A stretch of 64,000 bases of DNA from Amphiscolops sp. MND2022 (GCA_964187785.1 OZ076409.1:35466001-35530000); one strand, 5' to 3'; positions 2,611-37,947 are shown, counted from the stretch's first letter. Notes: generated by a model from the sequence alone, not told the origin. Numbers and translations are program-made.

Positions 2611-5600
2611 TCGAAAAAGATTTCCTTTTAGGCTAGTAGCTCTAATCAAACTTCAGTGGTAACATTAACTTTTTCCAACGAGAAAGCAAAGGTAAACGAA
2701 TGAAATATCTCGTCAATGAACGAACAATCTCTAACGATCAAAGGTTTTAAAGTCAGAAAGTTTTCAGTCTTATATCTTCATTCAGGAAATGAGTCTTTTA
2801 GTTTTCTCAGTTTTCAAACTTGATCACGATTTCCAACGTCTAGAAATCTGGAATTTTACAGAAGCAAAAAAATGCTCAGCGGGTGCCTTGTTCAAAATTA
2901 TTTGACAGTTATGGCCATGACTAGTTTCATAAATTTTCAGTGCAACCATCGATAGCATCAATTTGATTAATATCATGCTGGATTGCAAGATGAATTTTCA
3001 AAGTTAGCAGCGGTCGTCAACTTGAATCCTGATTTTCCACGAATTCCAATCGTTTCATGAGCTACGAGCATTTTGATCCGAAAAGAATTGCACTGTCTTC
3101 AATCGCACTGTCCTCACGTACGCTGGTAGGAGTACCCGTTTTGACAATTAGTCACATTCTATTTTCGATTGTAGACTTAGAATTTTTTGTTTTTTATATG
3201 GTATTATTTTCTACAATTTGTAAGTTTGATTTTTAAGCTGTAGCTGTTTGATAGTTGATATTTGATTCAATTCATTTTTGATTTCATCCAGTTAAACTGA
3301 AAAAAAATTGAAAATATTCATTGGTGAACAAAAATCAAATGATAATGCAACTCTCTAACAACCGTCCCTTACACCACGTTTTGTATAGGCTATTATCTAC
3401 CAGCCGTCCTCTGTACACTGAAAACAGAAAGATTTCATGAAAAACTCAATTTTTTCTATTGTTCTTCTCAGCGAAAAAACCTGATTTGCACGCTTGTTTT
3501 AGACCAATAACGTACGCTTATTGGACAAAAGTTTTTTTTCCTAGTTGAGTTACACCGATACGTTGCCTAAGGCTGAAATCAGGAAATAAGGGCAATGAAA
3601 CAGTCTTTTGATATTTAGAAGTTTTCGATAAGTTCTTCATTGTCGATAGTTGTTACAGAACTGCATTGTTCATAGAACATTTTAGGTAGAGTCGATTAGA
3701 CGTGCTGGTTGAAGCGACCGGTTTTAGATCTTCGTTGTTTTGTCGCTACCACCAGTTTGCAAGCATCAGTAATGACGATAATTTCTGAGTTTCCATTGAA
3801 AATTAGTGAACTCGTCCTTGAGTTTATTGAAATCGTTGTTTTTTCTTACGTCCAGTCCCGTTTTATGTTTTTACTGTTTGTTCTCAGATAGGTTTGTCCC
3901 AGGCGGCAGCCTGCGATGGTAATTTGTACTCCATCCAACACAACTATCAGAGGGCGCTTTCGGGGAAAATCGTGATGAAAACTGCCAGAATGTTCAACAA
4001 ACTGCTTTTTTTTCCATTTTATATTTTTTACTATTTTGTAAAAAAATAGTTTCATATTCAATATTAGTATAAGACACCAAACGCGCAAGCGAAAAGGAAA
4101 CGAGTTCAAGTGTTGGCTCGATTGGTGCACTGGACTACCGGTCCAAAAGACCTGTTATCCAATCGCCGTGAAGTTTTTTATCGATTAAAATACGCTGCTT
4201 AAACTACATGCTATGACTAAGTAAGGCAATGCGCCTTAAACGGCCTAACTTTGAAATATTGATTAATTAAAGGATGTCTTGTCTCAATGAAATCCTGGTG
4301 CTATTAATCAAAAGCCCTCTCTATTTAAGTGCTGATAAGAGTACATCCAAACCATGTGGTCAATGATATATGTCATTTCCCCTTTTCTAAAACAATTGAT
4401 GCGTTTGTACTGGATTTAGATATACTTGATGAATAGGATAATTATCATTGTACATACTTTGGCCCCAAAAGGTCAAATGCCATGAATCGCCATGAATGTT
4501 CAAGTAGTGCTATTGGAAGTCTATTTATTGCCCGAAATATGTTGTTCTAATACTATTCCTAAAACATATCATATAGGAGCTATATTTAGATCCATGACCC
4601 CCAATTTATTGAATGTCATCCTCCTCAGGGTATATAAGCCCAACATGAAGGGACTCTGACTTATTTTTCGATTGTTAAACTTGTTGAACGTTCAGTCATA
4701 GTTGAGACGGTTGATGAAATACTTTTCAGATTATACATTTTTGCCTTCCTGACTTACTTTTCCTAGCCTTCGACTAAAAGAGAGAAAATAAAAGCAACGA
4801 GATTAAGAGAAATTGACATATTGTCCGCTTACGGGAAAACGGAGGTGATGCTAGGAGAGGAAATTGAAACTAAACTGCAAGAGAGTTAGGAAATGTCATA
4901 AACAGGCCCTCAGACCACAGCGACACCAACACCTGGTTTTCGGAAAACTCGTCTTGGAAAAATGAAATCAGGGATATTGATGCTGGAAACGAAGCTCTCA
5001 GGAAGCATAGGCTGTTAGAAGTTGTAGAAATCAGTGATATTTTGCAACTGAATGTATGCTTTTAATTCCCAAAGGGTCCCCTCTTTTACATTTTCCGAAC
5101 AAAGAAAATTGAAAAGTTTCAAGTTTTTTTTTCAAAAAAGTGTTTTGCGCTTTTTTGAGCCTTGGATATAGCGCCGACTTTAGACGTTCTCTTCTTGTTT
5201 GTTACTTACCGTCTTGTTCGTTACTTAACAGGTTGCTCTCGAGACAATGTGACTTGCCAAATGAAAACTTCGTCGTTGATTGTTTAAAAAACTTCTATCG
5301 TCACAATTTTGGTTTTTTTGAAGTTTTCTGAAACAAAATCCATTTTCCAAGGCCTGAGGGTGATCTCATTAAATATTTTTTTGGTCCTGTGGAATTGATG
5401 AAAGTTATCTCAGTAATTGTGAAGAAGACCAACAATTTTTGCCGGCGCTGTGCGACTCTTCTTCGAAAAACAATTGATTGTTTTCGGCTTGAAAAAAGAC
5501 ATTTTCCGAGCTCAAACCTCCATTTTTGGCAATATCAGAGTTTTTTCTGGGAGCAAAATTTTTAGAAGCGAATTTGTATTGTTTTCAGTTGAGGAAAAAG

Positions 5601-6456
5601 TAATTTTCGAGTCTTATGCGTATCCCTTCGTGTATTTTTGGCATTGTAGTAAAAGATAATTTTTTAAAGTAGGTCTTCTGGTTTTCTTGAAATTTCTTTC
5701 TCTCGGGAGTTTTCTCTCCTTTTTTGTTGTTTTTGTCGGAGAAGCTGTTGATAACTTTTGAATTACAACGATCATTCTCTTCTGTTAGTTTGCAGTTGTT
5801 TCCTACTGGGTCTATTGATTTCTTCAAATGTTCTACAGGAGTTTCATTTTGTTTATCTTTTGCGCAGAGCTCCAAACTAGGGTTTTTCGTTTAGGTATGG
5901 AGTATTCTTTCAATCTGTATTGACTTTCTTGACATCGTTGGTGTCTGGGTCCCCGTTCGCGATGTATTTAATAGTTTTTTTAATTGCAGACGAGCTGGTG
6001 CTCCTGATGAAATCTTGCCCTAGTAACGATTCTTTTTGGATCCAGCTCATCGTAGGGAGTATTGTATGTTACGCGGAAAAAAGAAAAACCTTTTTTGTTC
6101 AGTTCCCTGGGCCAATTTAAAAATTTGTAGATCTTTTGGTAGAACTATTTTGATCACTTCAGGTGTATCGGAAAAAACACTGAGGAAAAGCCATGACTAT
6201 AGTCGACTCTTTTCTTAAGAAAAGCGCCGACTAAAAACGGTGACATAAATTGCCAACAGTCTATTCAAACGGAACACAATCAAATTACAACACTAAATAT
6301 CAAGTCTCCGTACCACTTTTGGAGTTTATTGTTCAACAATTTTCTATCACAAATAGCTCTTGACCCATAAAAGCGGTGATATGACAAGATATCAACTGGA
6401 ACGAACTTCATTCGAACGATCTTATCTTTCTTCGATTTTTTAATCGGCGCTTTTTG

Positions 6457-7380
6457 AAAACAAGCGGGGAACGGCCCAAGTCGGCGCCATATCTAAGGGT
6501 CAAAAACAGCAAAAGGACTTCAAAGTGTCAAAGTATTCTCTTCTACGGTACCGGAAAAACCCAAAAGTTGAACCGAATTGGCGCACCAGAGGGGACACTT
6601 TGAGATTTTTCATCCATTCTGTCGCAAATCATCAAAAAAATTGGAGGGGCACTTTTGGTGAAAAAAAATTGAAAAAAAGTCTCAATGCCGAAAAACTGAA
6701 AGGGGGGACCCTTTGGGATTTTTCAACATCCGTTCTGTCGGAAAACTCCAAAAACATTAAAGGGGGGACCCTTTGGGGAAAATTTTTTTCGAAAAAAAAG
6801 TCTCACAGAGCCAAAAATACTCTAAGGGAGTACCCTTTGGTCCCTTTGAGTTTCTTAGATGATGTAAAAATACTCCTTCGCAAGCTTTTGCGCCAGTATT
6901 TTAAATTTGCTAAGTAAGAATTGTAAGATTTTAAGATTGTAAGAATTGTAAGAAAAGTGGACCGATCAGTGTGAGGATTGTAGTCTGAAGAAACAAGACG
7001 GGAACGTCTAAAGTCGGCGCTATATCTAAGGCTCAAAAAAGCGCAATTTTTTAAATTTGTTATAGGGGAGACCCCTTCCGACTTTTTGAAAATCCAGTCT
7101 GTTGCAAAATATCAAAAAAGTTGAGGGGGACCCTCTGGAGACATTTAAAAAATATAAAAAATTTTTTGGAAAAATTTTCGAAAAAAAACGAAAAGTGAGA
7201 ATTTTGAAAAAGTCTCATGGTGCCGAAAAACTAGAAAGTGGGGACCCTTTGGGCTTTTTGAAACTTCAGTTTGCTGCAAAATATCAAAAAACTTGAAGGG
7301 GGGACCCTTTGGCGACAAAGAATTTCGAAAAAAAGTCGCACAGTGCCAAAAAAAATTGAAAGAGTCGCAGTGCCGAAAAA
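6457..7380 (-). mobile_element. Two adjacent partial copies of the HINE/Helentron-like non-autonomous repeat
   Basis: Family end motif aaacaagacgggaacgtctaaagtcggcgctatatctaagg at ~6991, with a variant at ~6457. Each is followed by the family's internal gggggaccctttg / cagtgccgaaaa motifs. Confidence 0.65.
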
Positions 7381-12912: not shown

Positions 12913-13030
12913 ATGGCGTCTTACTCTTCCGGTGATATGGTTGCGGCCATTTTATGCTGCATCCTGGGCACTGCGTTGCTGATAGCCCTCATTTTCTACC
13001 TTATCTACCGATGTTGTTTCAAAGGAAAAG
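12913..13030 (+). CDS. Exon 1 of the AHNAK/periaxin-like gene: N-terminal transmembrane helix (MASYSSGDMVAAILCCILGTALLIALIFYLIYRCCFKGK)
   Basis: ATG in aaaATGG context; ~23-residue hydrophobic stretch followed by RCCFKGK; donor AAG|GTGAGT; phase 1. Confidence 0.8.
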
Positions 13031-13108
13031 GTGAGTAAACAACAATTTCTGGAAAACTTTCTTCTTTTTTAATTAAAGGTGACAGTTAACGTGAACCTGC
13101 AATTTCAG

Positions 13109-13162
13109 AAAACTATCATGCTGCTGGAAGTGCATCTGTGGGCAGAGAAGCGAACTTTATGG
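13109..13162 (+). CDS. Exon 2 of the AHNAK/periaxin-like gene (ENYHAAGSASVGREANFMG)
   Basis: Acceptor tttcag|, donor G|GTAAGC, 54 nt, phase 1-1, open frame. Confidence 0.7.
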
Positions 13163-13662
13163 GTAAGCTAAGATCCAAGATCCACTATTGCGGTTAGAAA
13201 TTGAAAAATCATCAATGTTTAAAGCTCTTCAGCTCCCACAGGTGTAAACGTTTTATGGTCTTTCTTTTACATTTTGTGCGAGAAAACAGCCCCAGACAGC
13301 TGGAAAAAAAGACGAACAAAGTTTATTTTTAGGGATTTTCTCAGCTTCCTGAACTGCAAGACTGAAGTTGAATGTCATGGCTTGTTCATGGAAGTTCATA
13401 TGATATCTTTCGTCCTGGTTTTTGGACCATGTGTCTAGTCTTGAATAATCATGCTTCAGATAATTGCTTTATAAATCGATGATAACAATAATTGATGATT
13501 CATGAATGTTCATGCATAATCATCCATGATTCATTGGTTCCCATTCATAGTCCATCAAAGACTCCAAGCCGAAATATTTCAAACCCGTCGAGGTAAAATT
13601 GATCAATTTGACATGTAGCCTATGTCTATACCCCAAAGGTACTTGAATAAAACATTTGACAG

Positions 13663-13833
13663 GTCACGTGGAGGCTCTTGATGAAGTTGACCTTGGAGGT
13701 GCGGCTGAGGGGTCAATTGTTGTGCACAAAAGAGCAGAGCATGACCTCAATTTCAACATACAGGAAGACAACGGACACTTCACTATCACTGACCTCGATG
13801 CATCCGAAGAGTTAATGAGTCAGATAAAAGAAG
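13663..13833 (+). CDS. Exon 3 of the AHNAK/periaxin-like gene: first half of the PDZ-like domain
   Basis: Acceptor tttgacag|, donor AAG|GTAAAA, 171 nt, phase 1-1; reads ...HDLNFNIQEDNGHFTITDLDASEELMSQIKEG. Confidence 0.8.
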
Positions 13834-15269
13834 GTAAAACTACACTAATTTATGCTTTTCAACACTGCACTTTTGACATGGATATATTGGTTGAACTATG
13901 GCATTGTTTTGCTGCTACTATTGATTATCTTAATTGCTCATCTTTCGAGTTGACATTGTCTAGACTGAAACCTGTACCCGTATTATAAATATGTGCACAC
14001 AGTATGATGACTTGATAACATGAGTATTGCCTAGAACCAAAGACTGTAACACTACTGAATTTCAAGGTCATCATTTGGCGAACCAATGATTCAATTTGAC
14101 CATCAGCCCAACAGGAGGCGCAATAGACACTAGTAATTTTCGAATTTTTGAAGAAAAAAGTATGCAAACGACAAGAAAAAAAATCGCCCTACAGATTAGA
14201 AAACTAGTTCATGCATATATGATTGCCACATTTCCCATAAGATGTGAAATCATAGAATTGGAAAACTCGATAATTTTTGGGACACAGTTCCACGAACAAT
14301 TTTTGCAGAAAACACCATTTCACATAATACGAGAGGTTTTTCTACCATGAAAATCCGGTAATCTAGCACCATGTCGTAAAAAACCTCATTTACTGCATGT
14401 TCTGAACTATTGTTTGTATTTTCACGTGTTTTCCGATTCTGCGTACTTTCTACGCACGTACTCTGCAAAAATTGGGGTCACTTCAACCAATTTTGGCAAG
14501 TGAGACATGTTCACGAGCGTAAAGGGGCCCCCTTTCAAGGTTTTCAACACTTTGCGATTTTTTGAAACAAAACTTCATCGATTTGATTTCTCTTGGTTTT
14601 GATGTTTTCAGAAATCCACGAAAGTTTTCTTAGCACGAAAGGCTTCCTTCGGGTATTTTTTTCGGCACTGGTAATTTTTGAAAAAAAACTCTGATCATAC
14701 TTTAAAAACTGCGCTTTTTTAAGAATTTCGCGGGCACCGACTTGAGACGTTCCCATCTTGTTTGTTCTATTTTTTTAAATGAGATTAAAGAGAATAAGAT
14801 TGTCGACGAACTAAAATGATTACGTTCTGTAAAACAAATGTTTCTCATGTATTCATAATAACTACTTTTCCAAGGAAATTTTTCATTTCTCCCTACTCAA
14901 GACAAAAGTGAATCTTTTACCACTCAAAATTATGTCATGGCGGTGAATGTTTTGTGGATCAGTTTGCGAAAAAGTTTTCAAGTTCATTCCATAATGTTTG
15001 CTGCACCATGGTATTTCGCTATTTCGATATTTCTAACGTTTTCAACTAAAAATTGAAAAAATTGGTTTGCTGAAGCAGTGGATAAAACATTTTTTATTTC
15101 TGAGTATTAGAAACACCCAGGTTGATAATGACCTCAAATTCTTTCAATTCTCACTGATTGCATGATGCTTCTCACTGAGCAAGCTAAATCAACATTAATG
15201 TGACTAAAAGTTACCAAACTTACATTTGTATGTTTTTTATGATATTTGTGAGTTGAACAGTGCTTTCAG

Positions 15270-15452
15270 GAGATTCTCTCCAGGGTTGTTTGATCGAATT
15301 CCAGAACTGTTCTCTGGCCACTTCCATCGACATCCTGCAACACGTGTCCTCTTTCGTCACCCAGCTCCACATCAAGAAGTCCCCCGCAGTCTCTCTCTCC
15401 CCAGGCTCGGTGTCTCTGGACATGGACCCCCATCTCAGAGGTGGCGTCGGAG
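15270..15452 (+). CDS. Exon 4 of the AHNAK/periaxin-like gene: second half of the PDZ-like domain
   Basis: Acceptor ctttcag|, donor GAG|GTTAGT, 183 nt, phase 1-1; reads DSLQGCLIEFQNCSLATSIDILQHVSSFVTQLHIKK. Confidence 0.8.
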
Positions 15453-15983
15453 GTTAGTATCTGAGGTTACTGGTGTTGAATTCACAAGGTAATGTTCACA
15501 TGCTCGCTAAAACGCAGTAAATTTGTTTATGATGACTGTTTATGCAGAAGAATGTGATTGCTCCTTGTTAAATTTCCCTGTGTAATGTTAATGAATTACG
15601 TAGGCCTAATGTGGACGTCAGACTAAACATCTCAATAGAAGTGTTTTTCCAAGAAATACAAAATCGTAAAATAGGCTAGCGGCACAGACAACTTCCATTA
15701 TTTTGCCCATTGTGTGTGCGCGTTTGCGGGATGATGAAACGTTATCCGAGCAGCAAATAGTGTTTCATTTGATTTTCATTCACTATGCGCTTCAGATACC
15801 TTTCATATATTAGATCGCTTCTAAATTAACCCTTTCATCGTCCTATTCGAAGTATACCTTAGCACCGGATAGGATTTGGATTTCATATTTCATATCAAAG
15901 ACTTCAATAAATTCTGGTCTCTTCTAAAAGTCAGATTTTCAATTAGGCATTTATACAAAAAGACATGTCAGTTGCGTTTTCAG

Positions 15984-18900
15984 GACAAATAGGCGGTGAT
16001 CACAAAGTGAGTCTGGGTAGGGGTATCTCAAACCCAGGTTTAGACATAGATGGGGAGTATAATGATGTTCAACTGGAAGCCCAATCGCCCGACTTCGATT
16101 CCAGGAAAGTGTCCACGGATTTGCACGTTGATGCCGATGTTGACTTCAAACCGATCCGACAGTTTGACACCAGGAGGCAATCTTCAGTTGATGTCACCGC
16201 TAATCCAGCCAGAATGTCTTTCAGCTCATCGGCTAACCCTAAACTATCAGTATCAGGAAGACCTCAAATGGATATTGGGGGTTCTGCTGGTCTTGAAGCG
16301 GGAGGTGCTTCACTGGGCACCGATGGAGTCGGCCTTAACACTGGCTCAAGTGTGGAAATTGGAACACCTAGTGCAAACTTTGAAATGGAACAGAGAACTC
16401 CCCAGGTTAAACGTGGTTTCTTGTGCTGTGGTGGAGGTAGAGCCAAAGCACCTAAAGCTGGCATCAAAGGAAATACAAATCTGAACGTTCAGAAATCAGT
16501 GGATACAAACATAGACTTATTATCAGAAAACGACATACACACTGGCAAAGGAAAGTTGTCGTTTGACCCAGATACAGAGCTCACTGTAAAAAGTGCGACA
16601 GGCTTAGAAGCCGTTGGTGAACATAACATGGGCTTTGATATTGATGGAAGTGCCAGTAGTCGTTCAAATTCTTCTGAAAAGAAGGGTGGATTTGGAGTTG
16701 GTTTTGGTATTGGAGGAGGATCGAAAATAGATGCGAATGTTGACCTTGATGCAGATGCGAAGCTGAAAGGCAGAGAGAGATCAATTTCTCCAAAACGCAA
16801 GACAGGCGGATTCGGCGTTGGTCTTGGTGTTGGAGGAGGACCTAACTTAGACGCGGATGTTGATGTTGATGCAGATGCGAAGCTTAAAGGCAGAGATAGA
16901 TCTGTTTCTCCAAAAGGCAAGAAAGGTGGATTCGGCTTTGGTTTTGGTGTTGAAGGAGGACCTAACTTAGACGCGGATGTTGATGTTGATGCAGATGCGA
17001 AGCTTAAAGGCAGAGATAGATCTGTTTCTCCAAAAGGCAAGAAAGGTGGATTCGGCTTTGGTTTTGGTGTTGAAGGAGGACCTAACTTAGACGCGGATGT
17101 TGATGTTGATGCAGATGCGAAGCTTAAAGGCAGAGATAGATCTGTTTCTCCAAAAGGCAAGAAAGGTGGATTCGGCTTTGGTGTTGGTGTTGGAGGAGGA
17201 CCTAACTTAGACGCGGATGTTGACGTTGATGCAGATGCGAAGCTTAAAGGCAAAGACAGATCACTTTCTCCAAAAGACAAGAAAGGTGGATTCGGCGTTA
17301 GTCTTGGTGTTGGGGGAGGACCTAACTTAGATGCGGATGTTGATGTCGATGCAGATGCGAAGCTGAAAGGCAGAGATAGATCAGTTTCTCCAAAAGAAAA
17401 GAAGAAAGGCTTCGGTTTCAAAGTGGGAGGTGGAGGAAGTGCGGATCGAGATGCTCATGGCCCAAAAAGTAGAGGAAGATCTAAATCTCCAAAAGGCAAG
17501 AGGAAAGGTTTTGGTATCAAAATTGGGGGTGGGGGAGGTAGGGCTAAAAATGGAGATGCACATGCTTCCCCTAAGGTTGACAAAAATGGCTTTGGTTTGA
17601 AACTACGAGGAGGGACAAGTAAGGATGACAGTGTCTATGATGCCCCGAGCAGAGACCTGTCGCTATCGTCAAAAAGCGAGAATGATAGCTTGGGTTTTGG
17701 TTTTGCAATAGACGGAGGACCTAAGGCTGACTTTGATGCTGACGTCAAACCGAGGAGCCGATCAACATCTCCCAAAGAAAAGAAGGATGGCTTCGGTTTT
17801 GGTTTTGGTATTGGCGGAGGAGCCGATGCTGATGCCGACGTTGATGCTGACATCAGAAGAAAAAGCCGATCACCATCTCCCAACGGAAAGAAGGGTGGCT
17901 TCGGTTTCGGGTTTGGTATTGGCGGAGAAGCTGATGCCGATGTTGATGCTAACGTTAAAAGGAAAAACCGATCACCATCCCCCAAAGGAAAGAAAGGTGG
18001 CTTCGGTTTTGGGTTCGGTATTGGCGAAGGCGCTGATGCTGACATCAAAAGAAACAGCCGATCACCATCTCCCGAAGGAAAGAAAGGTGGTTTTGGTTTC
18101 GGGTTTGGTATTGGCGGAGAAGCTGATGCCGATGTTGATGCTAACGTTAAAAGGAAAAGCCGATCACCATCCCCCAAAGGAAAGAAAGGTGGCTTCGGTT
18201 TTGGGTTCGGTATTGGCGGAGGAGCTGATGCTGATGCTGACGTCAAAAGAAAACGCCGATCACCATCTCCCAAAGGAAAGAAGGGTGGCTTCGGTTTCGG
18301 GTTTGGTATTGGCGGAGGAGCTGATGCCGATGTTGAAGGTGACGTTAAAAGGAAAAGCCGATCACCATCGCCAAAAGGAAAGAAGGGTGGCTTCGGTTTC
18401 GGGTTTGGTATTGGCGGAGGAGCTGATGCCGATGTTGAAGGTGACGTTAAAAGGAAAAGCCGATCACCATCGCCAAAAGGAAAGAAAGGTGGTTTCGGAT
18501 TCGGGCTCGGGATTGGCGGAGGAGCTGATGCCGATGTTGAAGGTGACGTTAAAAGGAAAAGCCGATCACCATCGCCAAAAGGAAAGAAAGGTGGTTTCGG
18601 ATTCGGGCTCGGGATTGGCGGTGGAGCCGATGTTGATGCCGATGTTGACGCTGATGTCAAAAGGAAAAGCCGATCACCATCCCCCAAAGGAAAGAAAGGT
18701 GGCATCGGTTTTGGGTTCGGTATTGGCGGTGGAGCTGATGCTGATGCTGACGTCAAAAGAAAAAGTCGATCACCATCTCCCAAAGGAAAGAAGGGTGGCT
18801 TCGGTTTCGGGTTTGGTATTGTCGGAGGAGCTGATGCCGATGTTGAAGGTGACGTTAAAAGGAAAAGCCGATCACCATCGCCAAAAGGAAAGAAAGGTGG

Positions 18901-20584
18901 TTTCGGATTCGGGCTCGGGATTGGCGGTGGAGCTGATGCCGATGTTGATGCTGACGTCAAAAGGAAAAGCCGATCACCATCTCCCAAAGGAAAGAAAGGT
19001 GGCATCGGTTTTGGGTTCGGTATTGGCGGTGGAGCTGATGCTGATGCTGACGTCAAAAGAAAAAGTCGATCACCATCTCCCAAAGGAAAAAAGGGTGGCT
19101 TCGGTTTCGGGTTTGGTATTGGCGGAGGAGCTGATGCCGATGTTGAAGGTGACGTTAAAAGGAAAAGCCGATCACCATCGCCAAAAGGAAAGAAAGGTGG
19201 TTTCGGATTCGGGCTCGGGATTGGCGGTGGAGCTGATGCCGATGTTGATGCTGACGTCAAAAGGAAAAGCCGATCACCATCTCCCAAAGGAAAGAAAGGT
19301 GGCATCGGTTTTGGGTTCGGTATTGGCGGTGGAGCTGATGCTGATGCTGACGTCAAAAGAAAAAGTCGATCACCATCTCCCAAAGGAAAAAAGGGTGGCT
19401 TCGGTTTCGGGTTTGGTATTGGCGGAGGAGCTGATGCCGATGTTGAAGGTGACGTTAAAAGGAAAAGCCGATCACCATCGCCAAAAGGAAAGAAAGGTGG
19501 TTTCGGATTCGGGCTCGGGATTGGCGGTGGAGCTGATGCCGATGTTGATGCTGACGTCAAAAGGAAAAGCCGATCACCATCTCCCAAAGGAAAGAAAGGT
19601 GGCTTCGGTTTCGGGTTCGGTATTGGCGGAGGAGCTGATGCCGATGTTGATGCTGATGTTAAAAAGAAAAGCCGATCACCATCGCCAAAAGGAAAGAAAG
19701 GTGGTTTCGGATTCGGGTTCGGTATCGGCGGAGGAGCTGATGCCGATGTTGACATCAAAAGGAAAAGCCGATCACCATCTCCTAGAGGAAAGGAAGGTGG
19801 CTCCGGTTTTGGTTTCGGTATTGGCGGAGGTGCTGTTACTGATTTTGAAGGCCCTTGTGCAAAGAACCATAACGGTGTAGTAACTTCGTTTAAACACGAC
19901 AATTCATTGAAGACGTCAGTAGATCTCGAAGCGGACATTGCCGTAAGCAAAGAAGCAACATTGGAATCTGAGCCAGTGAAACCAGCGAAACCCGAGTACA
20001 AGATAGTAATTGACCCAGTCACTGGGGCGAAGAAAAAGTTGCGACGAAAACCAAAAGATGGAAAAGCAGCTGCAAAAACAGATGGACCCAAGGATTATGA
20101 AATTAAAGTTGATCCAGTTACTGGTAAAAAATATAAAGTTAGAAAACGTGATCCTTCTGGTGACAAAAAAGGAAAAGCAAAGGTGGATTTAGAAAGTTCA
20201 TCAAATAGGGCCGATCTCAAAGCACCAAATGCTAGTCTGAGCAACAATCTCCATGTAGTTGCTCCAGTAACAGCACAGAATGGAATGTTGGAAGGTGAAA
20301 TAGACTTACGAGATGGAATGCATGGCCAGAGTTCTGACAACCAAAAAGTTAATTTGGAATCGGGTGGAGCAATTGGTGTTTCTTTAAATTCTGAAGGGAG
20401 CAATTATTCCTCACACAAAGAATTGAATTTGATTGAGAAGTCATTAGAAGAACTTCGATCTGCCAAAAACTTTTCCATGAGTAACAACCAATCACATTCC
20501 CGAACCCCCTCCCCGAAACCAAGGAAAACCAAATTGAAAGTGGCAATGAGAGCCAGCAGCAGTTCTGAAGACTCGGATGAATGA
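15984..20584 (+). CDS. Giant last exon (4.6 kb) of the AHNAK/periaxin-like gene: low-complexity tandem-repeat domain
   Basis: Acceptor gttttcag| at 15983 gives a phase-1 entry into the 1539-codon ORF 15965-20584. The spliced CDS is 5127 nt = 1708 aa plus stop. Confidence 0.9.
16675..17420 (+). repeat. Coding tandem repeat, 120-bp/40-aa unit (KKGGFGFGFGVEGGPNLDADVDVDADAKLKGRDRSVSPKG), ~6 copies
   Basis: The sequences starting at 16861, 16981 and 17101 are identical at a 120-nt period. Confidence 0.95.
17750..19830 (+). repeat. Coding tandem repeat, ~30-36-aa unit (RKSRSPSPKGKKGGFGFGFGIGGGADADVEGDVK), ~20 copies, with a 300-bp higher-order period
   Basis: Units are visible in the ORF translation; 18661-18960, 18961-19260 and 19261-19560 are near-identical. 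Confidence 0.95.
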
Positions 20585-22900: not shown

Positions 22901-23169
22901 AGTAACTTGAATAAACTAGCTTATCAAAAACTATAAATCTGTCACTTTTTCGGTCTTTAAAAGATAGCGTCGACAAGAAATTGATGTAATAAATTTTGAT
23001 TACTACCTATGATATAACTTTCCGAAATTTTTCTGCGTTGTACAGTTAGTCGCAAGATGCGTAAACGTTTGATATCTTTGGCATTGAAATCCTGTTTGTT
23101 AGCCAATTGTAGGTGATTTCATTCTTGATTGTTTGAAAACTTTTTTGAAAAGCTTGATGGAATACAATT

Positions 23170-24840
23170 TGTTGGCGCCTCGAAAATAACTTGAAATCAG
23201 CTATTCGAAAAATACCCTAAAATAGCCCTTAATTGGTGGCTGTAAAAGATTGAGTTTTGGGAATCACACTCTAGGATGGTCGGCAACCGACATATTTTTG
23301 GCCAACTAAACCATCTAGGGCAAAAAACCGGAAATCGAAAGCAAAAATTTGAAAAATATTTTTTTTCTGGGGCAAAAACAGAGATTTCTTCTAAAATATT
23401 ACAAATTTGGTAATTTATCGTCCTGCTTGTGTATTTAACCTGTCAAGTGGTCATATTTGGTTATATCTAGTCCAAGCGGAAGCCGGTAGAGCATTTGTAA
23501 TCTAATAGAAGCTTTGGTGGGCAAATAACAAATATATTAAAGGACCACAAAATCGTGTAAAAGTTTTCTTCAGATGTTGATATACCAATATCTTTGTATA
23601 CTTTATCGCCTCGAAAGTGGGTAGTTTGTTAACTTTATGTATCATTATAGAACATTTATGGTGTCCTCATATTTGATTGTAAACATGACTTTTATGTAGT
23701 TCCTTGTAGGTCCAAATAGACTCCAATCTTGCTAAAACCGACGAGAAAGACGGGAGAGAACTAAGTATCTTACTGAGCAGTTGATCTTTAACTTCGATTC
23801 GAATACCTCAAGAAAGCATATTTTGGAAATTGATCGTTCAAGATTTTACTAATTTCGAGCATAGATTGGATTTTATTTCGACCAATTGATTTTTGCCTAG
23901 TAAAAACAAGTTGATTCGAGATTCCATCCTCAATTAAAGTTATTGCTTCAATCTTGTTGTTTTATTCGTTTCATCGTCATCGGATCGACAGGTTTTGTTA
24001 TAGTTCTTTTGAACGTGAAAGTAGATCTACTTGAAACAATTTATTTCTCAGAGGTTAGAGAATTTCATGTTTTATAGAAAACACAAGTAACAGTCAAAGA
24101 CGCAGTAATTGCTTCACCGACTACGAACGCTTGTTTGTTGTGCACAATAGTTTTTCTAACCAAAGAAATAGATGCGATATCATCTATTTAAATCGTCGAA
24201 ATCTCGAAATTTGCTAATTGCTGACAGTCAAGGTAAAGAGCTTGATATAGCCAATTTCAACGTCTTATCATTACCAGGAGCTTGTGTAAGACACGTTTAC
24301 ATTTTCATCCCGAAAAAGGACAGTTACGATACTGTTGTTCTTTTCATTGGAGGTAACGATCTTTTTTGTAATAACGCACCTTCCACAAAATCTGCTGAAG
24401 ATTTAACGCAGGAATTATCAGACCTTGCTAATTTCCTACTTACCAAAATTAAAAGTGTTTTTGTTCTTGGCATACCATTACGCCATTCTCTACCTCAGAG
24501 ATCCAAAACCGTGAACGCATTATTGGCTTTGCGCAAAGAAGGCTGGAAATTCAGAGGCATTTCTAGACAGATATATAGTGACAAACACTTGAAAAGGGAT
24601 AACGTCCATTTGAGTTCTAAAGCTTTGAGTGGAATTGGTTATATCCTAAAATCTAAAATTCTTTACAAACGATTCTGTCCTGAATTGGAAGAAGAAGGAT
24701 ATTCGCATATTATTGAGTGCAAAGGAACCTGCAGGTGTCTTTCCTGGACAAAGTATTAGAAGAGATTGTTCCATAGTGAAGACGAGGGCCGTCGTAAAGC
24801 TTGGTAAGTGTATTTGTTATCATACCTTGCAGACGTAAAA
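23170..24840 (+). repeat. 5' LTR (1671 bp) of the BEL/Pao element
   Basis: TGTTGGCGCC...GCAGACGTAAAA; direct repeat of 31479-33148. Confidence 0.95.
24172..24759 (+). CDS. SGNH/GDSL hydrolase (esterase)-like protein, 195 aa, encoded inside the 5' LTR
   Basis: Four SGNH blocks in order: LIADSQG (block I Ser), LPGA (II Gly), IGGNDL (III Asn), DNVHL (V Asp/His). Intact from ATG to stop. Confidence 0.85.
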   Translation: MRYHLFKSSKSRNLLIADSQGKELDIANFNVLSLPGACVRHVYIFIPKKDSYDTVVLFIGGNDLFCNNAPSTKSAEDLTQELSDLANFLLTKIKSVFVLGIPLRHSLPQRSKTVNALLALRKEGWKFRGISRQIYSDKHLKRDNVHLSSKALSGIGYILKSKILYKRFCPELEEEGYSHIIECKGTCRCLSWTKY

Positions 24841-24843
24841 TTT

Positions 24844-24861
24844 TGGTGCCGCGACCCGGGA
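24844..24861 (+). promoter_or_regulatory. Primer-binding site, tRNA-His-like (TGGTGCCGCGACCCGGGA)
   Basis: 3 nt after the LTR end; resembles the complement of the tRNA-His 3' end (TGGTGCCGTGACTCGGA). Confidence 0.8.
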
Positions 24862-24910
24862 AGGCACTGTGCGGGATTCGGTCATAATTTGATTTGCAAA
24901 AGAAAATAGA

Positions 24911-27900
24911 ATGGCAGAGCCGATTGTACGCAATTTGTGGGACCCCACATATATGACTTCAACAAAAAACGGACATGAAAGAAAGGTCTTTTTTACTGAC
25001 TGCTTGAAAAATTCTTCCACAATGAAGGAGTGGATAGAACACGAAAAACGCGTCTCAGATATGATTTTAATTCTCAGAAACCTAGACGCGGATTTCCAGG
25101 ATCTCCATGCTCAGGATCCAAATGTTTGGGTTGACGTTGGTAAGTTCTTTTTAACTTACTCAACTTCAAAGGATAAGTTGCGCAAAGAGTTCGAAATGTA
25201 TCTCCCCATGCTGAAAGATAAGTTTCAAGGCAGCCGTAAGGAGATCTTGTACAAATTGGAGTACGAACTTGAAAACTATTTTGAGAATTGGAGCAAAAAG
25301 ACCTCATTTCTTGTGAGCGTGAGGTGGCTTCCATCGCGCCTGAAAAATGAAAATGACCTAATGAAGTATATGAAACTCTGCGATCAGTTTTATGACGCTA
25401 AACGAATAATTGAAGCAGAAAAAATGACAATCAGTAAACTAATCGAGCAAGGAGCGAGGTCGAGTCATGTGAAACTGGCTATCCAGAAACTTCAAGATAA
25501 CAAAGCGATTTTAGATAAAAGTCTCGAAAGTAGACGCAATTGTCTCAAGCCTGATGCTTTGTCAACTCTATCACACGCCGAAAAAATTGTCACAGAAATG
25601 AACTCTATCGTTCAACAGGCAATGACTGACGCTCTGAACTATTTTGATAGCTGCAATATAGCAGCAAATGATCCATTGGGAAACATAGAAACACCTGAAG
25701 TGTCTGGGTTTGAAAGTTCGAAGATATCAAAAGACGATGAGAACCGTTCTCATGCCTTGGAAAAATCCAAGGCGAATGAAACACTTGACAAAGGATTGAA
25801 ATTGCTTAACGAGGCAAATCAATCAACACTAATCCTCAAAATTAACGACCGGTTTGATAACCCATCTTTTCAACCTCAATCAGCTACTGTTGGATCCCAG
25901 AAAAGATTTTCTTTAGTAGACTACTCCCCTACAAGAACATTAGCTATGAGTGAGCCAGCAAAAAAGGCTTGTTCAAAGATAGGCTCCAATGCTTCGAAAA
26001 TGAGTGAACGAAGATGGTTGGAGATACAAGCTGAACTGATGGATCAAAAATTACAAATGGAAATAGAAAAAAGAACGTGAGTTGGAACTAGAGAAAACTC
26101 GTAGAGAAATGGAAAGAGATTTGGAAGAATTGGAGAAAAAACAAGAAATGGAAAGAAGAGAAGTCGAAATGCAGAAGAGGCTCCAAGAATTGCAAGCAGA
26201 ATCGGAAATTGCTGAATTGAGGAGCAAGAAAGCTTTTGAAAAGCACCAATTGCGATTGCAAATAGAGGAGGCTGAAGGATCAATTCGTGCTTCTTCAATA
26301 TGTCCTAGCTTGATGTCTCTCACTCTGGAGGAGGACAAAAACAGTGACATTAAAAGTTGGTTAGACCAAGGTGTTGATGACTTAGATAAGTGCTTCTCGC
26401 AACCGAAGGAATCTAGCAGAGAAGTAAAAAATAAAGGTGAGTCAAGTAAACCGCCTAATACATTTGACCGCAAAAACCTATTATCGCGAACCCAAGGCAG
26501 AGGTACAAGTAAGTCACCCCAGAGAAAAAACACTGGAATTACTTTTCCGAAACAAACGCCCTGCTTCAGCAAGGCAATGAGAAACCAAAGCCTAAATATG
26601 ATTTCGCGAAACCCTCATTCAAAATAGAAAGTGATTTTCCTTCCTTCACAACAGCAGTACCTGTACAACCACCGGTACATTTTGTTCAAACAAGCTTACC
26701 TAAATTGAAATTATCTGAATTTCATGGAGACCCATTGGAATGGCCAGAATGGTCCAGTTTGTTCACAGCTACCATCCATAATGCGCCAATTGATGACAAT
26801 GCAAAAATGAGTCATTTGAAAACACTTGTTAAAGGCAAGGCCAAGGCGGCAATTGCGGGTCTCGGATACTCAGGAGTCATGTATAGTGCAGCGTGGAATG
26901 CTTTGGTTACTAATTTCGGACGACCACAAACAATTGTCAATGCTCAGATGAAGCAAATTCATTTGAGTCCGTTCATCAAGTCGCATGATTCAGCGGCTAT
27001 TATAAAGTACGCACAGTTGATTACTACATGCGTTAATGTGTTGAAACAGTTCGGATTCACTGGAGATTTGTACTCTGAATCCGTCTTGAACTCAGCGTTG
27101 AGGAAGTTACCACCTGAATTGAAAACCAAGTGGTTTTTTCTTGCGAAGAGCAAAGGCTACACTACCACATTGATCTTTGTAAATTTAGCGAATGGCTGAA
27201 CGAAGTTGCTTATGTTCACGATGAAATGACAGTGCAATTCAAGTCTCAATCAGAGACAAAAGGCTACGCTAGTACGGAGAACGTGAAAACCTCAACATTT
27301 GCTGCTAATGAGCAGAGCAAATCAACACCTGCATCAACAAAGCAATGTCCATTGAAGGATGGCGACCATAAAATCTGGATGTGTACGAAGTTCAAACAAC
27401 AAGGTGTTAATGAGAGATACGAAACACTGAAGAAATATAAACTTTGTTTCTGTTGTCTAAATTCACATTTGATGAAGGACTGCAAGTCGGACAGAGTTTG
27501 TGGAGTAAATGGATGCACCAAGAAACACAACAAGCTGTTGCATTCGGATTCTCCTAGAACCGAAAAAGATAAGAAGTCGGAGGAACCCTTGTCTCAAAAC
27601 AGGGCCGGCGGTTCTTCAATGCTCTCAACAGGTAGCAGTGGTTTCTTACAGTTGATACCAATTTCAATTGGAAATGAGAAACGAAGCGCTGAAACGATAG
27701 CTCTTTGTGATACTGGATCCACGGTATCATTTATGGACAAAACTTTGGTCAACCTTTTGAAGCTGAAAGGTAAAGAATCCGTGATGTCGGTAGCTGGAAT
27801 TCATGGGCTATCTGACATGAAGACTGAAATTGTTACCGCCAGAATTGGTCCAAGTGAAACAGATACTGCGGGAGAAGAACTGGCCTTCTGCAGTCACCCA

Positions 27901-30900
27901 AACTTGAATGTCGGTGACAAAATCTACGATTTTACAAAATTGAAAGAAATTTATTCCTATTTGAAAAATTTGCCGGATATAAAGGTCTCGATGGCTGATG
28001 TCAAGGTCATTCTTGGTCAAGATGCGTATCACCTGATCAGACCTCTTGAATATAAGTCAGGTGATAGGAAAGAGCCTTGGGCGGTCAAAACTTCTTTGGG
28101 ATGGACAGTGAGTGGAGCATTACCCCAAGCAGAAACAAACTGTTTGGCAGCAACGTGTAACCTCTCCGTGTCTTCGGATCCTTTAGCGGATCAAATGAAG
28201 AAATGGTGGGACATGGAGACATACGCGTCTGTGTGTGATGTCTCAGGACGTTCTAAGGAAGAAAAGAGAGCCCAGGCAATCTTCGAAAAAACTACCATAC
28301 ATAACGGCGAACGTTATGAAGTAGGACTCCTCTGGGCCGATGACAACCCTAACTTGCCGAACAATTATTATTCTGCTTACCAACAGTTTCTGTCAATGGA
28401 GAGAAGATTAAGCAAGGATCTAGAGTTGAAAGAAGCTTACAAAGCTACCATTGAGAAAGACTTAGAAAATCATTTTGTACGAAAACTGGAACAAGAACAA
28501 GTTGTGAGTACAGAAAATGACATGCAATGGTATTTACCTCATCATCCGGTCAAGCACCCACACAAACCAGGCAAGGTCAGAAGAGTTTGTAATGCAGCTT
28601 CAAAGTTTAAAGGCGTTTCCTTGAATGACAAACTTTTAAGCGGACCTGATTTGTTGCGAAACTTGGTTGGAATTGTTTTCAGGTTTAGGGAACACCAAAT
28701 AGCTATTACCGCCGATATTGAGTCCATGTTTTTGCAAGTAGCAGTTCCGAAAGAGGAATGGAAAGTACTTCGTTTCCTATGGCGTGATAGTCCTGAGGAC
28801 AGCATCGGAATCTTCGAGTACAACAGACACGTGTTTGGGGCAAAAAGCTCTCCAACTTGTGCGAACTACGGATTCCAACAGGGAGGAAGAGACAACAAAG
28901 TCGATTTTCCTTCAGCAGCATCGACCATAGAAAGAAACTTCTACATGGACGATTTAGTGAAAAGTGTTGATAGCCCTCAGGCAGCTATTACCTGTTACCA
29001 AGAGTTGGTAGAGACTCTCAAACGTATTGGATTCACATTGAAGAAGTGGGCTAGCAACAGCCCGGAAGTTTTGGAAATTATCCCAGTAGAAGATCGACTA
29101 GAAGCGAACGAATTCACGCTTAATGCTGAATCATCTGCCATTCTAGGTCTGGAGTGGATAATCGATAGAGATTGTCTACAAGTATGTAGAGGACCTAACA
29201 AAGAATGTCCACAAGACATAACTCAACGAGTAGTGTTATCCTTTGTTTCCTCAGTTTTTGATCCCATGGGAATCTTTGCACCTTTCACTATGCGGATGAG
29301 AATGCTTTTGAAAAGTATCTGGATTCGCTTTGGCCAATCATGGGATGAAAAAATTGCGGATGATGATGAACAGGTATTCCTAGATTGGGTGACAGAAATG
29401 CAAACAATTAAAAACACCTCACTTCCTGAAACTTATTTCTCTGATAACCCCAAAAACATTCAACTGCACATCTTCAGTGATGCGTCTCTAGAAGCCATGT
29501 GCATCGTCGCTTATTTTCGAGCAGAAGTCAATGATGGAGTCGAAGTCTCTTTTGTTTTGGGCAAATTTAGAATAGCTCCCATCAAACAACTGTCTATACT
29601 TCGTCTAGAGCTGCAAGCAGCAGTGTATTCAGTCAGATTGAGAACCTTGATTGTTCAAGAACATGATTTACGGATTGACAGCGTTACTCATTGGACTGAT
29701 TCAGTTACTGTGCTTCAATGGTTACACTCAGCTGACAAAAAACAAAATGTTTTTGTAGCTAACAGAGCAGCTGAGATATTGGAAAACTCCACAATTGACG
29801 AGTGGAAGCACGTTAAAGGTGAAATGAATCCATCTGATATTGGGACGCGTGGAATTTCTATAGAGAAATTGACTGAAAGTGATTGGTTAGCTGGACCAAT
29901 TTGGCTCAAAGACCATCCTGACGATTGGCCTTCGTCTCTGCAACCAATTAACTTGGTGCCTGATGACCATGCTGCAGTTGCAGTAATTGCGAACACAAGC
30001 ATGATTCAGAAGCCAATAGTTGATTGGAGCAGGTTTAGCAGTTTTTCTAAATGTGTGCGAGTTATTGCATTTTGCTTACGTTTGAAGTTCAAGAGTCAAT
30101 CTAAGGTATTACTTCCATGTGAACTGCAGCGAGCGGAAGAAAAGATTCTGAAACTAATCCAACGAGAAACCTTTCCTGAAGTGTATGATGGGAAGCAAAT
30201 GTTTGGTAAGACAAGCAAAGGTGGAAACTTGGCAAAATTTTCTCCATTTTTCGATGAATGCGGTATGATTCGAATAAGTGGTCGCATCAAACATGCAAAT
30301 TTGAGCTTCCAACAGCGACATCCAATTCTTTTATCCACAAAACACGATATGTTTAGTGTAATGTTACGTGATTTACATCTGGAACACAACCATGAAGGAG
30401 TAGAGTATGTTAGAAGCGTAATACAACAGAAGTTCTGGATTTTGGGATTACGAAATGCTTTGAGTAGCAATTGTGTTTACTGTCGCAAATTACGTGCGCA
30501 GATAAAATCTCCTCTCATGGCCGATTTACCTGCCGAGAGGCTCGATTATCAGTCATATCCCTTTACCCACGTTGGAATGGATTATTTCGGTCCATTCGAA
30601 GTTAAATTGTTACGACGATCCATGAAACGATGGTGCTGTTTGTTTACATGTTTAACTACCAGAGCAGTGCATATCGAAGTGGTTCGAAGTCTCGACACAG
30701 ATTCTTGCTTGGTAGCTATCAACAGATTTATCGCCAGACGTGGCAAGCCAACAACCATCATAAGTGACAATGGTACTAACTTTGTTGGATCCGCGAGAGA
30801 GTTGAAAGAGTACATCAACTCGTGGAATCACGATCAAATTACATCAGAGTTGGCTCAAAAGCATATTGCATGGAAATTTAACCCTCCTGGGGCACCTCAT

Positions 30901-31503
30901 TTTGGGGGTGTTTGGGAACGGTTGGTCAGAAGTTGCAAGATAGCTATGATGGCAATTCTGGGAAATCGATCTCTGACTGATGAATCTTTGACTACAACCA
31001 TGTGCTTGGTTGAACAAACATTGAATGCACGTCCTATTACCCCAGCAAGTGATGATCCTGCTGATTTGGAGGCCCTTACGCCTAATCATTTTATTCTGGG
31101 TCGTGCGAATATTTGTATACCCTTTATCCCCAATGCTGAAGTTTATTCCAATCATCGCAAGATGTTTCGGTCGTGTCAGGCTTATGCTGATATGATTTGG
31201 AAACGATGGGTTGCAGAATACCTACCCCAAACCCATGTCAGAAACCAATGGAGTAAACAAGAAGCCAATGTTGAAGTTGGCAACTTAGTTTGGTTGGTGG
31301 ATAACAATGTGAAAAGGTCTCATTACAAGATGGCACGAATTCAAGAAATTTATCCAGCAAAAGATGGTGTAGTGAGATCAGTGCTTATCAAAACTCATGA
31401 CGGTACCTTCAAACGACCTGTAGTAAAGTTGGCGCCAGTCTTCAATGAGCGTTTTCAGTCTGAAAACGGGGCCGCCATTGTTGGCGCCTCGAAAATAACT
31501 TGA
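24911..31503 (+). pseudogene. BEL/Pao gag-pol polyprotein, interrupted by three frameshifts (~26075, ~26550-26700, ~27165)
   Basis: Gag LPKLKLSEFHGDPLEWPEW with three Cys/His knuckles; protease LCDTGS; RT FYMDDL; RNase H FSDAS; integrase H..H/C..C plus MDYFGP, SDNGTNF and WERLV. The pieces are ORFs 24911-26080, 26082-26627, 26705-27199 and 27130-31503. Confidence 0.95.
31462..31478 (+). promoter_or_regulatory. Polypurine-tract-like site of the BEL element
   Basis: gaaaacggggccgccat lies immediately before the TG of the 3' LTR. Confidence 0.65.
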
Positions 31504-33148
31504 AATCAGCTATTCGAAAAATACCCTAAAATAGTCCTTAATTGGTGGCTGTAAAAGATTGAGTTTTGGGAATCACACTCTAGGATGGTCGGCAACCGAC
31601 ATATTTTTGGCCAACTAAACCATCTAGGGCAAAAAACCGGAAATCGAAGACAAAAATTTGAAAAATATTTTTTTCTGGGGCAAAATCAGAGATTTCTTCT
31701 AATATATTACAAATTTGGTAATTTATCGTCCTGCTTGTGTATTTAACCTGTCAAGTGGTCATATTTGGTTATATCTAGTCCAAGCGGAAGCCGGTAGAGC
31801 ATTTGTAATCTAATAGAAGCTTTGGTGGGCAAATAACAAATATATTAAAGGACCACAAAATCGTGTAAATGTATGCTTCAGATGTTGATATACCAATATC
31901 TTTATATACTTTATCGCCTCGAAAGTGGGTAGTTTGTTAACTTTATGTATCATTATAGAACATTTATGGTGTCCTCATATTTGATTGTAAACATGACTTT
32001 TATGTAGTTCCTTGTAGGTCCAAATAGACTCCAATCTTGCTAAAACCGACGAGAAAGACGGGAGAGAACTAAGTATCTTACTGAGCAGTTGATCTTTAAC
32101 TTCGATTCGAATACCTCAAGAAAGCATATTTTGGAAATTGATCGTTCAAGATTTTACTAATTTCGAGCATAGATTGGATTTTATTTCGACCAATTGATTA
32201 TTGCCTAGTAAAAACAAGTTGATTCGAGATTCCATCCTCAATTAAAGTTATTGCTTCAATCTTGTTGTTTTATTCGTTTCATCGTCATCGGATCGACAGG
32301 TTTTGTTATAGTTCTTTTGAACGTGAAAGTAGATCTACTTGAAACAATTTATTTCTCAGAGGTTAGAGAATTTCATGTTTTATAGAAAACACAAGTAACA
32401 GTCAAAGACGCAGTAATTGCTTCACCGACTACGAACGCTTGTTTGTTGTGCACAATAGTTTTTCTAACCAAAGAAATAGATGCGATATCATCTATTTAAA
32501 TCGTCGAAATCTCGAAATTTGCTAATTGCTGACAGTCAAGGTAAAGAGCTTGATATAGCCAATTTCAACGTCTTATCATTACCAGGAGCTTGTGTAAGAC
32601 ACGTTTACAATTTCATCCCGAAAAAGGACAGTTACGATACTGTTGTTCTTTTCATTGGAGGTAACGATCTTTTTTGTAATAACGCTCCTTCCACAAAATC
32701 TGCTGAAGATTTAACGCAGGAATTATCAGACCTTGCTAATTTCCTACTTACCAAAATTAAAAGTGTTTTTGTTCTTGGCATACCATTACGCCATTCTCTA
32801 CCTCAGAGATCCAAAACCGTGAACGCATTATTGGCTTTGTGCAAAGAAGGCTGGAAATTCAGAGGCATTTCTAGACAGATATATAGTGACAAACACTTGA
32901 AAAGGGATAACGTCCATTTGAGTTCTAAAGCTTTGAGTGGAATTGGTTATATCCTAAAATCTAAAATTCTTTACAAACGATTCTGTCCTGAATTGGAAGA
33001 AGAAGGATATTCGCATATTATTGAGTGCAAAGGAACCTGCAGGTGTCTTTCCTGGACAAAGTATTAGAAGAGATTGTTCCATAGTGAAGACGAGGGCCGT
33101 CGTAAAGCTTGGTAAGTGTATTTGTTATCATACCTTGCAGACGCAAAA
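31479..33148 (+). repeat. 3' LTR (1670 bp) of the BEL/Pao element
   Basis: Direct repeat of 23170-24840, differing by roughly 14 substitutions and one T indel by eye. Confidence 0.95.
32480..33067 (+). CDS. SGNH/GDSL hydrolase-like protein, 195 aa, copy in the 3' LTR
   Basis: Same ORF as 24172-24759 with two amino-acid differences (I/N, R/C); all four SGNH blocks are intact. Confidence 0.85.
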   Translation: MRYHLFKSSKSRNLLIADSQGKELDIANFNVLSLPGACVRHVYNFIPKKDSYDTVVLFIGGNDLFCNNAPSTKSAEDLTQELSDLANFLLTKIKSVFVLGIPLRHSLPQRSKTVNALLALCKEGWKFRGISRQIYSDKHLKRDNVHLSSKALSGIGYILKSKILYKRFCPELEEEGYSHIIECKGTCRCLSWTKY

Positions 33149-37944: not shown

Positions 37945-37947
37945 CCA

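Follow-up and report, generated by a model that had tools for sequence, protein, structure and literature searches.

The 64,000-nucleotide (nt) stretch of Amphiscolops sp. MND2022 analysed here (GCA_964187785.1 OZ076409.1:35466001-35530000), hereafter the window, carries on its plus strand a predicted gene in which four small exons lead into one giant repeat exon. We consider it reasonably probable that this gene encodes a divergent relative of AHNAK, AHNAK2 and periaxin, held at the membrane by an N-terminal N-out/C-in anchor of its own and not via partner proteins. The five-exon animal gene itself is confirmed as real at the level of the sequence. Its membership in the family is likely, although unproven; the gene likely goes back to the same ancestral gene and is scaffold-like in layout. 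Among the features of the family, the intron between a Gly and an Asp codon (written G/D, with the slash marking the splice junction) and the giant last exon were found, while the phases of the flanking introns, the repeat sequence and the presence of an anchor set the gene apart.

Exon-intron structure of the gene

Joining the five exons gives a frame of 1,708 amino acids (aa) without internal stops, in which the sole stop codon is the terminal one. GT donors and (C)AG acceptors are present at every intron, and all four introns, of 78, 500, 1436 and 531 nt, are of phase 1. The exons measure 118, 54, 171 and 183 nt, followed by 4,601 coding nt in exon 5, and their guanine-cytosine content is 0.46-0.56, compared with 0.32-0.36 in the introns. 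Exons 1-3 are packed into 921 nt. The initial annotation had proposed just such an arrangement, with phase-1 GT-AG introns leading into a 4.6-kb repeat exon, and the model held at all four introns, in the open frame and in the base composition. The exons are as follows:

12913..13030, plus strand: exon 1, with the ATG, a 9-aa N-terminus, the predicted signal-anchor helix, R-C-C and basic residues
13109..13162, plus strand: exon 2, a putative linker of 54 nt, phase 1-1, placed by splice sites, phase and base composition
13663..13833, plus strand: exon 3, 171 nt; residues ~74-115 (13710-13833) form the putative PDZ N-half, and the exon ends at the EG/D donor
15270..15452, plus strand: exon 4, 183 nt; residues 116-151 (15272-15379) form the conserved, periaxin/AHNAK2-like PDZ C-half, recognised from two orthologs (P0024/P0025) and from hhalign comparison with vertebrate exons
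15984..20584, plus strand: exon 5, 4,601 coding nt, with a low-complexity linker, repeat arrays, a Lys/Ser-rich C-terminus and the stop

The start of exon 1 is preceded by an in-frame stop 13 codons upstream, and the 36 nt before the ATG contain no AG. Exon 5 is the only long open reading frame (ORF) among the five exons, and an intron-blind gene caller ran exon 3 on into intron 3 (product P0022), so that the ORF track does miss or split the exons, as had been suspected. In a product from a second assembly (P0023), the residue immediately preceding the KEG donor motif of exon 3 is Leu instead of Ile, which is the sole difference in 106 aa. The region of intron 3 and exon 4 holds 13 open AG..GT exon candidates, of which 11 overlap exon 4; the one taken as exon 4 has a 5′ end that fits the boundary of both the ortholog and the vertebrate genes. 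Reading exon 4 on into intron 4 meets a stop after one codon and would give a product of ~176 aa, which bears on a short isoform of the S-periaxin type; intronic stops are common.

Conservation of exon 4

The search of 1.84e9 representative proteins with exon 4 (phmmer) matched three proteins. Two of them, P0024 (E 2e-7) and P0025 (E 1.4e-4), are exon 4 in two other genomes; the third, P0026, proved to be an unrelated HYR-repeat protein. The core of exon 4 spans 36 columns, in which it agrees with the two orthologs at 64% and 57% and 16 columns are invariant; the similarity fades after the core. In P0024 the similarity opens precisely at the G/D boundary and is preceded by intron-like sequence. 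By this conservation, exon 4 is independently supported as coding.

Homolog searches found no orthologs of exons 1-3 or 5. The search with the exon-5 linker retained none of 3,683 candidates, and that with exon 3 retained one of 23, which is solely the mis-called product of the window itself. Neither exon 4 nor the repeat region gave a usable match in the ESM Atlas, and scanning the exon-4 alignment over metagenomes gave 111 pattern matches, none of which was confirmed. The match of exon 4 to reovirus sigma C in Pfam/PDB (E 0.0016, below cut-off) was rejected; it covers 18-25 residues outside the conserved block.

Resemblance to periaxin and AHNAK2

Vertebrate references were obtained by a degenerate motif scan of metagenome contigs, which yielded five loci. 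Three of these (L123, L124 and L125) are exons of vertebrate-type genes, probably from fish; the other two (L122 and L126) were discarded as chance matches that stop or diverge straight after the motif. The best structure in the PDB search was AHNAK2 for L125 (4cn0, E 1.5e-15), periaxin for L123 (4cmz, E 4.8e-15) and both for L124, and L125 also retains the upstream PDZ exon (4cn0, E 2.5e-18). Public metagenome assemblies thus contain periaxin/AHNAK2-like genes of vertebrate hosts with intact exon structure, which can be used as references.

The acceptor of the intron within the putative PDZ region lies inside the Gly codon before Asp, in phase 1, in the gene under study and in all three vertebrate loci, and the position is equal to the base; the comparison at EG/D recommended in the initial annotation therefore uncovered an intron common to the three periaxin/AHNAK2-like loci. 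In human PRX, two papers (PMC10352492, PMC12617670) place introns at c.27, c.184 and c.381, of which c.184/185 is of phase 1 and c.27 and c.381 are of phase 0. The exon after the G/D intron has 183 nt here, 182 nt in L125 and 194 nt in L123, and its equivalent in human PRX, c.185-381, has 197 nt (PMC12617670).

The sequence resemblance was assessed against bacterial, not animal, PDZ domains as negative controls (117 usable of 121 loci, selected for the V-[ND]-G turn). Aligned with the three vertebrate exons by hhalign, the exon-4 core gave a probability of 69.6% and a pairwise E of 4.2e-5 over 34 ungapped columns with 26% identity. The score of 22.5 was equalled by none of the 117 bacterial PDZ C-half triplets (maximum 13.65) and by none of 200 column shuffles (maximum 16.8). 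The C-half keeps the register of periaxin and AHNAK2 without gaps, at D1, F10, N12, L22, an aromatic residue at 28 and a basic one at 36, and does not have the V-[ND]-G turn seen in canonical domains. On a hidden Markov model (HMM) of the vertebrate exon B, exon 4 ranks first among 1,258 window segments and the 117 bacterial domains. In the pairwise tests, the proposed likeness of the C-half to periaxin/AHNAK2 is accordingly an ungapped match above every control.

The resemblance extends over the splice junction. Residues 72-151, compared with the two exons of L125, reach a local score of 58 over 40 ungapped columns spanning the junction, which none of 3,000 shuffles equalled and for which the bacterial PDZ maximum is 37. 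With a two-exon vertebrate HMM, the joined region scores 14.8 bits (E 0.021 for 20,000 sequences) versus 7.7 bits for exon 4 alone; no control equalled the joined region (0 of 2,000 shuffles, 0 of 117 bacterial PDZ domains), and the whole 1,708-aa model has an E of 0.35. The tail of exon 3 contributes ~7 bits to this score, the match staying in register over the junction. Its last four residues fit the L125 donor, and only two of the 185 G/GTRA donors of the window score as high, one of them being the donor itself. The identity to vertebrate members is 26%, compared with 56-75% among the vertebrate members, and phmmer with exon 4 retrieved no vertebrate proteins; on these sequence comparisons, the gene is not an ordinary vertebrate paralog.

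The predicted N-terminal anchor

The features of the gene that may serve in membrane attachment are listed below:

12940..13008, plus strand: predicted transmembrane helix, residues 10-32, likely N-out/C-in by the positive-inside rule
13012..13017, plus strand: juxtamembrane Cys34-Cys35, a candidate palmitoylation site by sequence
16424..16429, plus strand: second Cys pair, C323-C324, after a basic-hydrophobic patch, a possible second lipidation site

Residues 10-32 reach 2.9 on the Kyte-Doolittle scale (19-mer), and beyond residue 40 no segment exceeds 1.2. Among the 514 ATG-started open stretches of the window, the helix of exon 1 is the single one that reaches 2.8. It is directly followed by R33, C34, C35, K37 and K39. 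Judged by hydropathy, the layout of a palmitoylated type III protein is thus present, namely a short N-terminus, a single helix, and basic residues and cysteines C-terminal to the helix. A cleavable signal peptide appears less likely, considering the hydrophobic core of 23 residues, the N-region without basic residues and the basic residues after the core. The signal-anchor-like helix with a juxtamembrane Cys pair, which had been read from the sequence at the outset, was recovered as the sole strong hydrophobic segment, with C34-C35 behind it.

The giant repeat exon

Most of exon 5 is made of repeats, and three elements can be distinguished:

16679..17403, plus strand: repeat array A, 6 copies of 120 nt (40 aa), each with a Gly-Phe strand, an Asp-alternating strand and a basic Ser-Pro segment
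17733..19835, plus strand: repeat array B, ~21 copies of 90-108 nt (30-36 aa), with a higher-order period of 300 nt and one SPK-type motif per unit
20012..20125, plus strand: two DPVTG hairpin-like motifs (residues 1519 and 1552) in the C-terminal region, with a weak PepSY match below the curated cut-off

The units of arrays A and B alike consist of a Gly/Phe, an Asp-alternating and a basic Ser-Pro segment. The DPVTG units are reminiscent of the plakin-repeat hairpin. The repeat region contains 25% Gly and has a net charge of +76, and the whole protein carries 56 S/T-P and 27 SPK motifs. Compared in pairs, 12 repeat units of 34 codons differ by 312 synonymous and 177 non-synonymous codon changes, the pairs not being independent; since the synonymous differences outnumber the others, the frame of the repeats is taken as the coding frame. 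The long antisense and alternate-frame ORFs across the repeats were dismissed as by-products of the repeat. The homolog search with the repeats retained 21 of 7,999, at 20-24% identity, which were taken as compositional matches, and no ortholog was among them. AlphaFold modelled four repeat units with low confidence (predicted local distance difference test, pLDDT, 51.5), placing one strand in each Gly-Phe segment, and a fold search with this model returned nothing at E <= 0.001.

Points against the family assignment and alternative explanations

Several observations weigh against a place in the periaxin/AHNAK family. The comparison with periaxin/AHNAK2 was picked as a target after the fact, and the G/D intron is possibly common among PDZ genes. 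Exon 3, proposed as the AHNAK/periaxin-like N-half of the domain, shows no PDZ or AHNAK2 signal: it has no match in Pfam and scores -0.5 bits on the vertebrate HMM, BLAST finds no alignment with the L125 exon, and 312-753 of 2,000 shuffles score equally well against it. By contrast, the L125 counterpart exon matches Pfam PDZ (E 2.9e-4) and many canonical PDZ chains, the latter with 12-19 bits. On visual inspection, the hydrophobic strand pattern is retained in exon 3, with L-N-F in the position of the L-G-F motif of canonical PDZ domains. At the level of databases, searches of the PDB with the exon-4 profiles retrieved no PDZ chains up to an E of 10, and the vertebrate exon-B HMM gives exon 4 a score of 6.7 bits (E 63 at PDB size), the next unrelated window segment reaching 6.1. 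When the repeats, linker and C-terminus were compared with the giant exons of two fish (the initial 525 aa of one and 945 aa of the other), no recognisable similarity emerged: in one of eight comparisons 3 of 150 shuffles did as well, and in the others 35-137 of 150. The initial proposal of an AHNAK/periaxin PDZ in exons 3 and 4 stands in part, for the pairwise match of the C-half and the G/D intron, and is not supported for the N-half, the similarity staying below significance in database searches.

It is rather unlikely that the gene carries a degenerate PDZ of another animal family, in which case the giant repeat exon and the likeness to periaxin/AHNAK2 would be independent and the product a lineage-specific transmembrane PDZ adaptor. 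Such an origin would agree with the GRIP PDZ chain (1p1d), which outscores exon 4 on the vertebrate exon-B HMM (11.9 bits), and with the introns on either side: these are of phase 1 and 1 here versus 0 and 0 in L125 and human PRX, and 0 downstream in L123. One of three intron positions is thus shared in phase with the vertebrates; the flanks are unalignable, and the flanking introns may be different ones. The repeats are also unrelated in sequence, and we know of no transmembrane helix in the vertebrate AHNAK, AHNAK2 and periaxin members. Nevertheless, the ungapped periaxin/AHNAK2 register without the V-[ND]-G turn, for which the bacterial set was chosen, the nearly equal length of the exon after the intron and the similar gene layout speak for the family. 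Repeats that look unrelated are moreover expected, because those of AHNAK and PRX evolve very fast; in a preprint (10.1101/2020.02.14.947036), they rank first and eighth in the speed of repeat evolution among 4,939 vertebrate groups.

Quite improbable is the absence of any PDZ, with exon 4 as a small lineage-specific conserved module whose amphipathic pattern resembles periaxin by chance, in a membrane-anchored structural or adaptor protein of its own kind with Gly/Phe and Ser-Pro repeats. The Pfam, NCBIfam and PDB-sequence searches, without a PDZ match for exon 3 or exon 4 and without PF00595 on either, are in line with this, as are the bacterial PDZ HMM (117 sequences), on which the joined domain scores -1.3 bits versus 10.2 for L125, and the AlphaFold model of exon 4, which is one long helix and not strand-helix-strand (pLDDT 64; half a domain modelled from a single sequence with no alignment). 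Yet the Pfam blank on exon 4 is uninformative, because the genuine vertebrate exon B is missed too, and a chance pattern would not readily explain a match in register across the junction, where one other of 185 donors does as well, or an intron position coinciding to the base. Prediction of a two-chain complex from the peptides of exons 3 and 4 (score 0.02) was counted neither way. Finally, the gene may be a real periaxin/AHNAK relative in which exons 1-2 belong to an alternative or separate 5′ end and the main product is soluble, as in vertebrates, which we regard as very improbable. Orthologs are found for exon 4 only, and exon 2 is supported by splice sites, phase and base composition alone, both of which would fit a separate 5′ end; against it stand the dense packing of exons 1-3 with short canonical phase-1 introns and coding-level base composition, the stop that readthrough meets two codons into intron 1, and the helix that is unique among the ATG-started stretches.

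Comparison with known systems and proposed mechanism

Small exons followed by a single giant exon are the layout of the family (PMC10682155, PMC10352492). Periaxin (PRX, 4cmz) resembles the gene in the phase-1 intron within the PDZ region (human c.184/185, PMC12617670, and G/D in the periaxin-like L123), in the ungapped C-half register, and in ending with a single giant exon that encodes a basic region and short repeats. The sizes are also comparable, 1,461 aa versus 1,708 aa here, and the periaxin tail is predicted to be disordered (PMC7072810). Unlike the protein studied here, periaxin has no anchor of its own and is held by DRP2/dystroglycan and integrin beta4, according to PMC7072810 and PMC6465933; it also differs in phase 0 flanking introns, PEVK-type instead of Gly/Phe repeats and a clear PDZ N-half, the identity in the best block being ~26%. 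AHNAK2 (4cn0) gives the best pairwise score, and in L125 it has a two-exon PDZ split at EG/D, then an exon of 182 nt (183 here) and a giant exon. It differs in its 5,795 aa and 165-aa repeats (PMC8833689) and in the absence of a described anchor; the giant exon here is dissimilar to the two partial fish sequences, and the N-half is not significantly alignable. AHNAK (desmoyokin) is alike by description only, with small exons and one giant repeat exon, an N-terminal PDZ (PMC10682155) and a role as a cortical scaffold; by description it is unlike in its ~700 kDa, 128-aa repeats and membrane recruitment via annexin 2/S100A10 (PMC8833689).

An example of a similar layout outside the family is given by LAT and PAG/Cbp, the palmitoylated type III transmembrane adaptors. 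They share the very short N-terminus, one helix, juxtamembrane cysteines and a long disordered cytoplasmic tail, and differ in tyrosine-motif signalling and in having neither a PDZ domain nor a giant repeat exon.

Under the favoured interpretation as an anchored AHNAK/periaxin relative, the helix would insert N-out/C-in, C34/C35 would be palmitoylated and the remainder of the protein would be cytoplasmic. Exons 3 and 4 would fold as a degenerate PDZ-like domain, which may mainly homodimerise, as in periaxin and AHNAK2, rather than bind C-terminal peptides, given the periaxin-type register and the absence of a Gly-rich carboxylate loop. The PDZ of periaxin/AHNAK2 type is described as an intertwined, domain-swapped homodimer (PMC7072810, PMC8833689). 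The mostly disordered, net-basic tail with its 27 SPK motifs could serve beneath the plasma membrane, in the cell cortex, as a long spacer or scaffold that is regulated by phosphorylation. By analogy, the built-in anchor would substitute for the partner-mediated membrane attachment of the vertebrate proteins. It may have been gained by exon shuffling, which is possible because exons 2-4 are all of phase 1-1, or may equally have been lost in vertebrates.

In the titles and abstract openings of the open literature, with subscription journals sparsely covered, no description of an invertebrate or membrane-anchored periaxin/AHNAK was found. In the available part of an earthworm genome paper (PMC7253469), 'AHNAK' serves to name a marker and is not analysed; the label is thus already in use for genes of invertebrates. 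Partial texts of four further papers (PMC1790709, PMC3276551, PMC4879868, PMC3954830) hold nothing further on the range of the family.

Other features of the window

Outside the masked elements, an exon scan for neighbouring host genes gave 26 candidate groups, none recognisable by eye. A BEL/Pao-type long terminal repeat (LTR) retrotransposon occupies 23169-33067, with Pao peptidase, reverse transcriptase and integrase and with direct repeats (93-96%) 8,308 nt apart. An ORF of 195 aa, GDSL/SGNH-like by weak Pfam matches below cut-off and belonging to a cluster of 18, occurs twice, at 24172 and 32480, with the same spacing as the direct repeats. Because the ORF recurs at the repeat spacing, it appears to lie within the terminal repeats, and these appear to extend over 1.6 kb or more.

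On the minus strand, 58815-60608 encodes a 565-aa ORF with no Pfam/NCBIfam match at cut-off and a cluster of 184 members, flanked by 155-nt direct repeats at 57588 and 60974 (82%). Its motifs R, HK, R and H...Y presumably point to a tyrosine recombinase, and the locus is possibly a Crypton/DIRS-like mobile element. The intervals 43399-46747 and 52289-53152 (minus strand) hold Gypsy-type reverse transcriptase, RNase H and integrase in several frames and a fragment of a hAT dimerisation domain. A dispersed repeat family (D6, D9-D11), which may be one present in acoel genomes, lies at 5035-5199, 6455-7334, 35301-35473 and 37754-38436.

Significance

Periaxin is mutated in Charcot-Marie-Tooth 4F, and in the literature consulted, periaxin and the AHNAKs are scaffold proteins of vertebrates whose domain-swapped PDZ is unique and for which no other homologs are described. 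The only conserved part of such genes, ~80 residues over two small exons, is below the threshold of database searches, which is why they would escape notice. If the homology fails, the gene would still encode a membrane repeat protein that is lineage-specific, undescribed and modest in its interest. A bolder reading, which we hold to be doubtful, is that the family is far older than vertebrates and myelin. In its ancestral form, or an early-branching one, a PDZ-like head that dimerises and a giant repeat exon would have belonged to a palmitoylated integral membrane protein; the vertebrates would then have lost the anchor and attached via dystroglycan, integrin and annexin partners. If this is true, and if the host is a bilaterian of acoel grade, as the dispersed repeat family of the window may suggest, the origin of the family would lie at the base of Bilateria. 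A non-vertebrate relative, if real, would make the origin of the swapped PDZ and the pre-myelin role of the giant repeat exon testable, and a form with its own anchor would directly show a role of the family in lining the cortical membrane.

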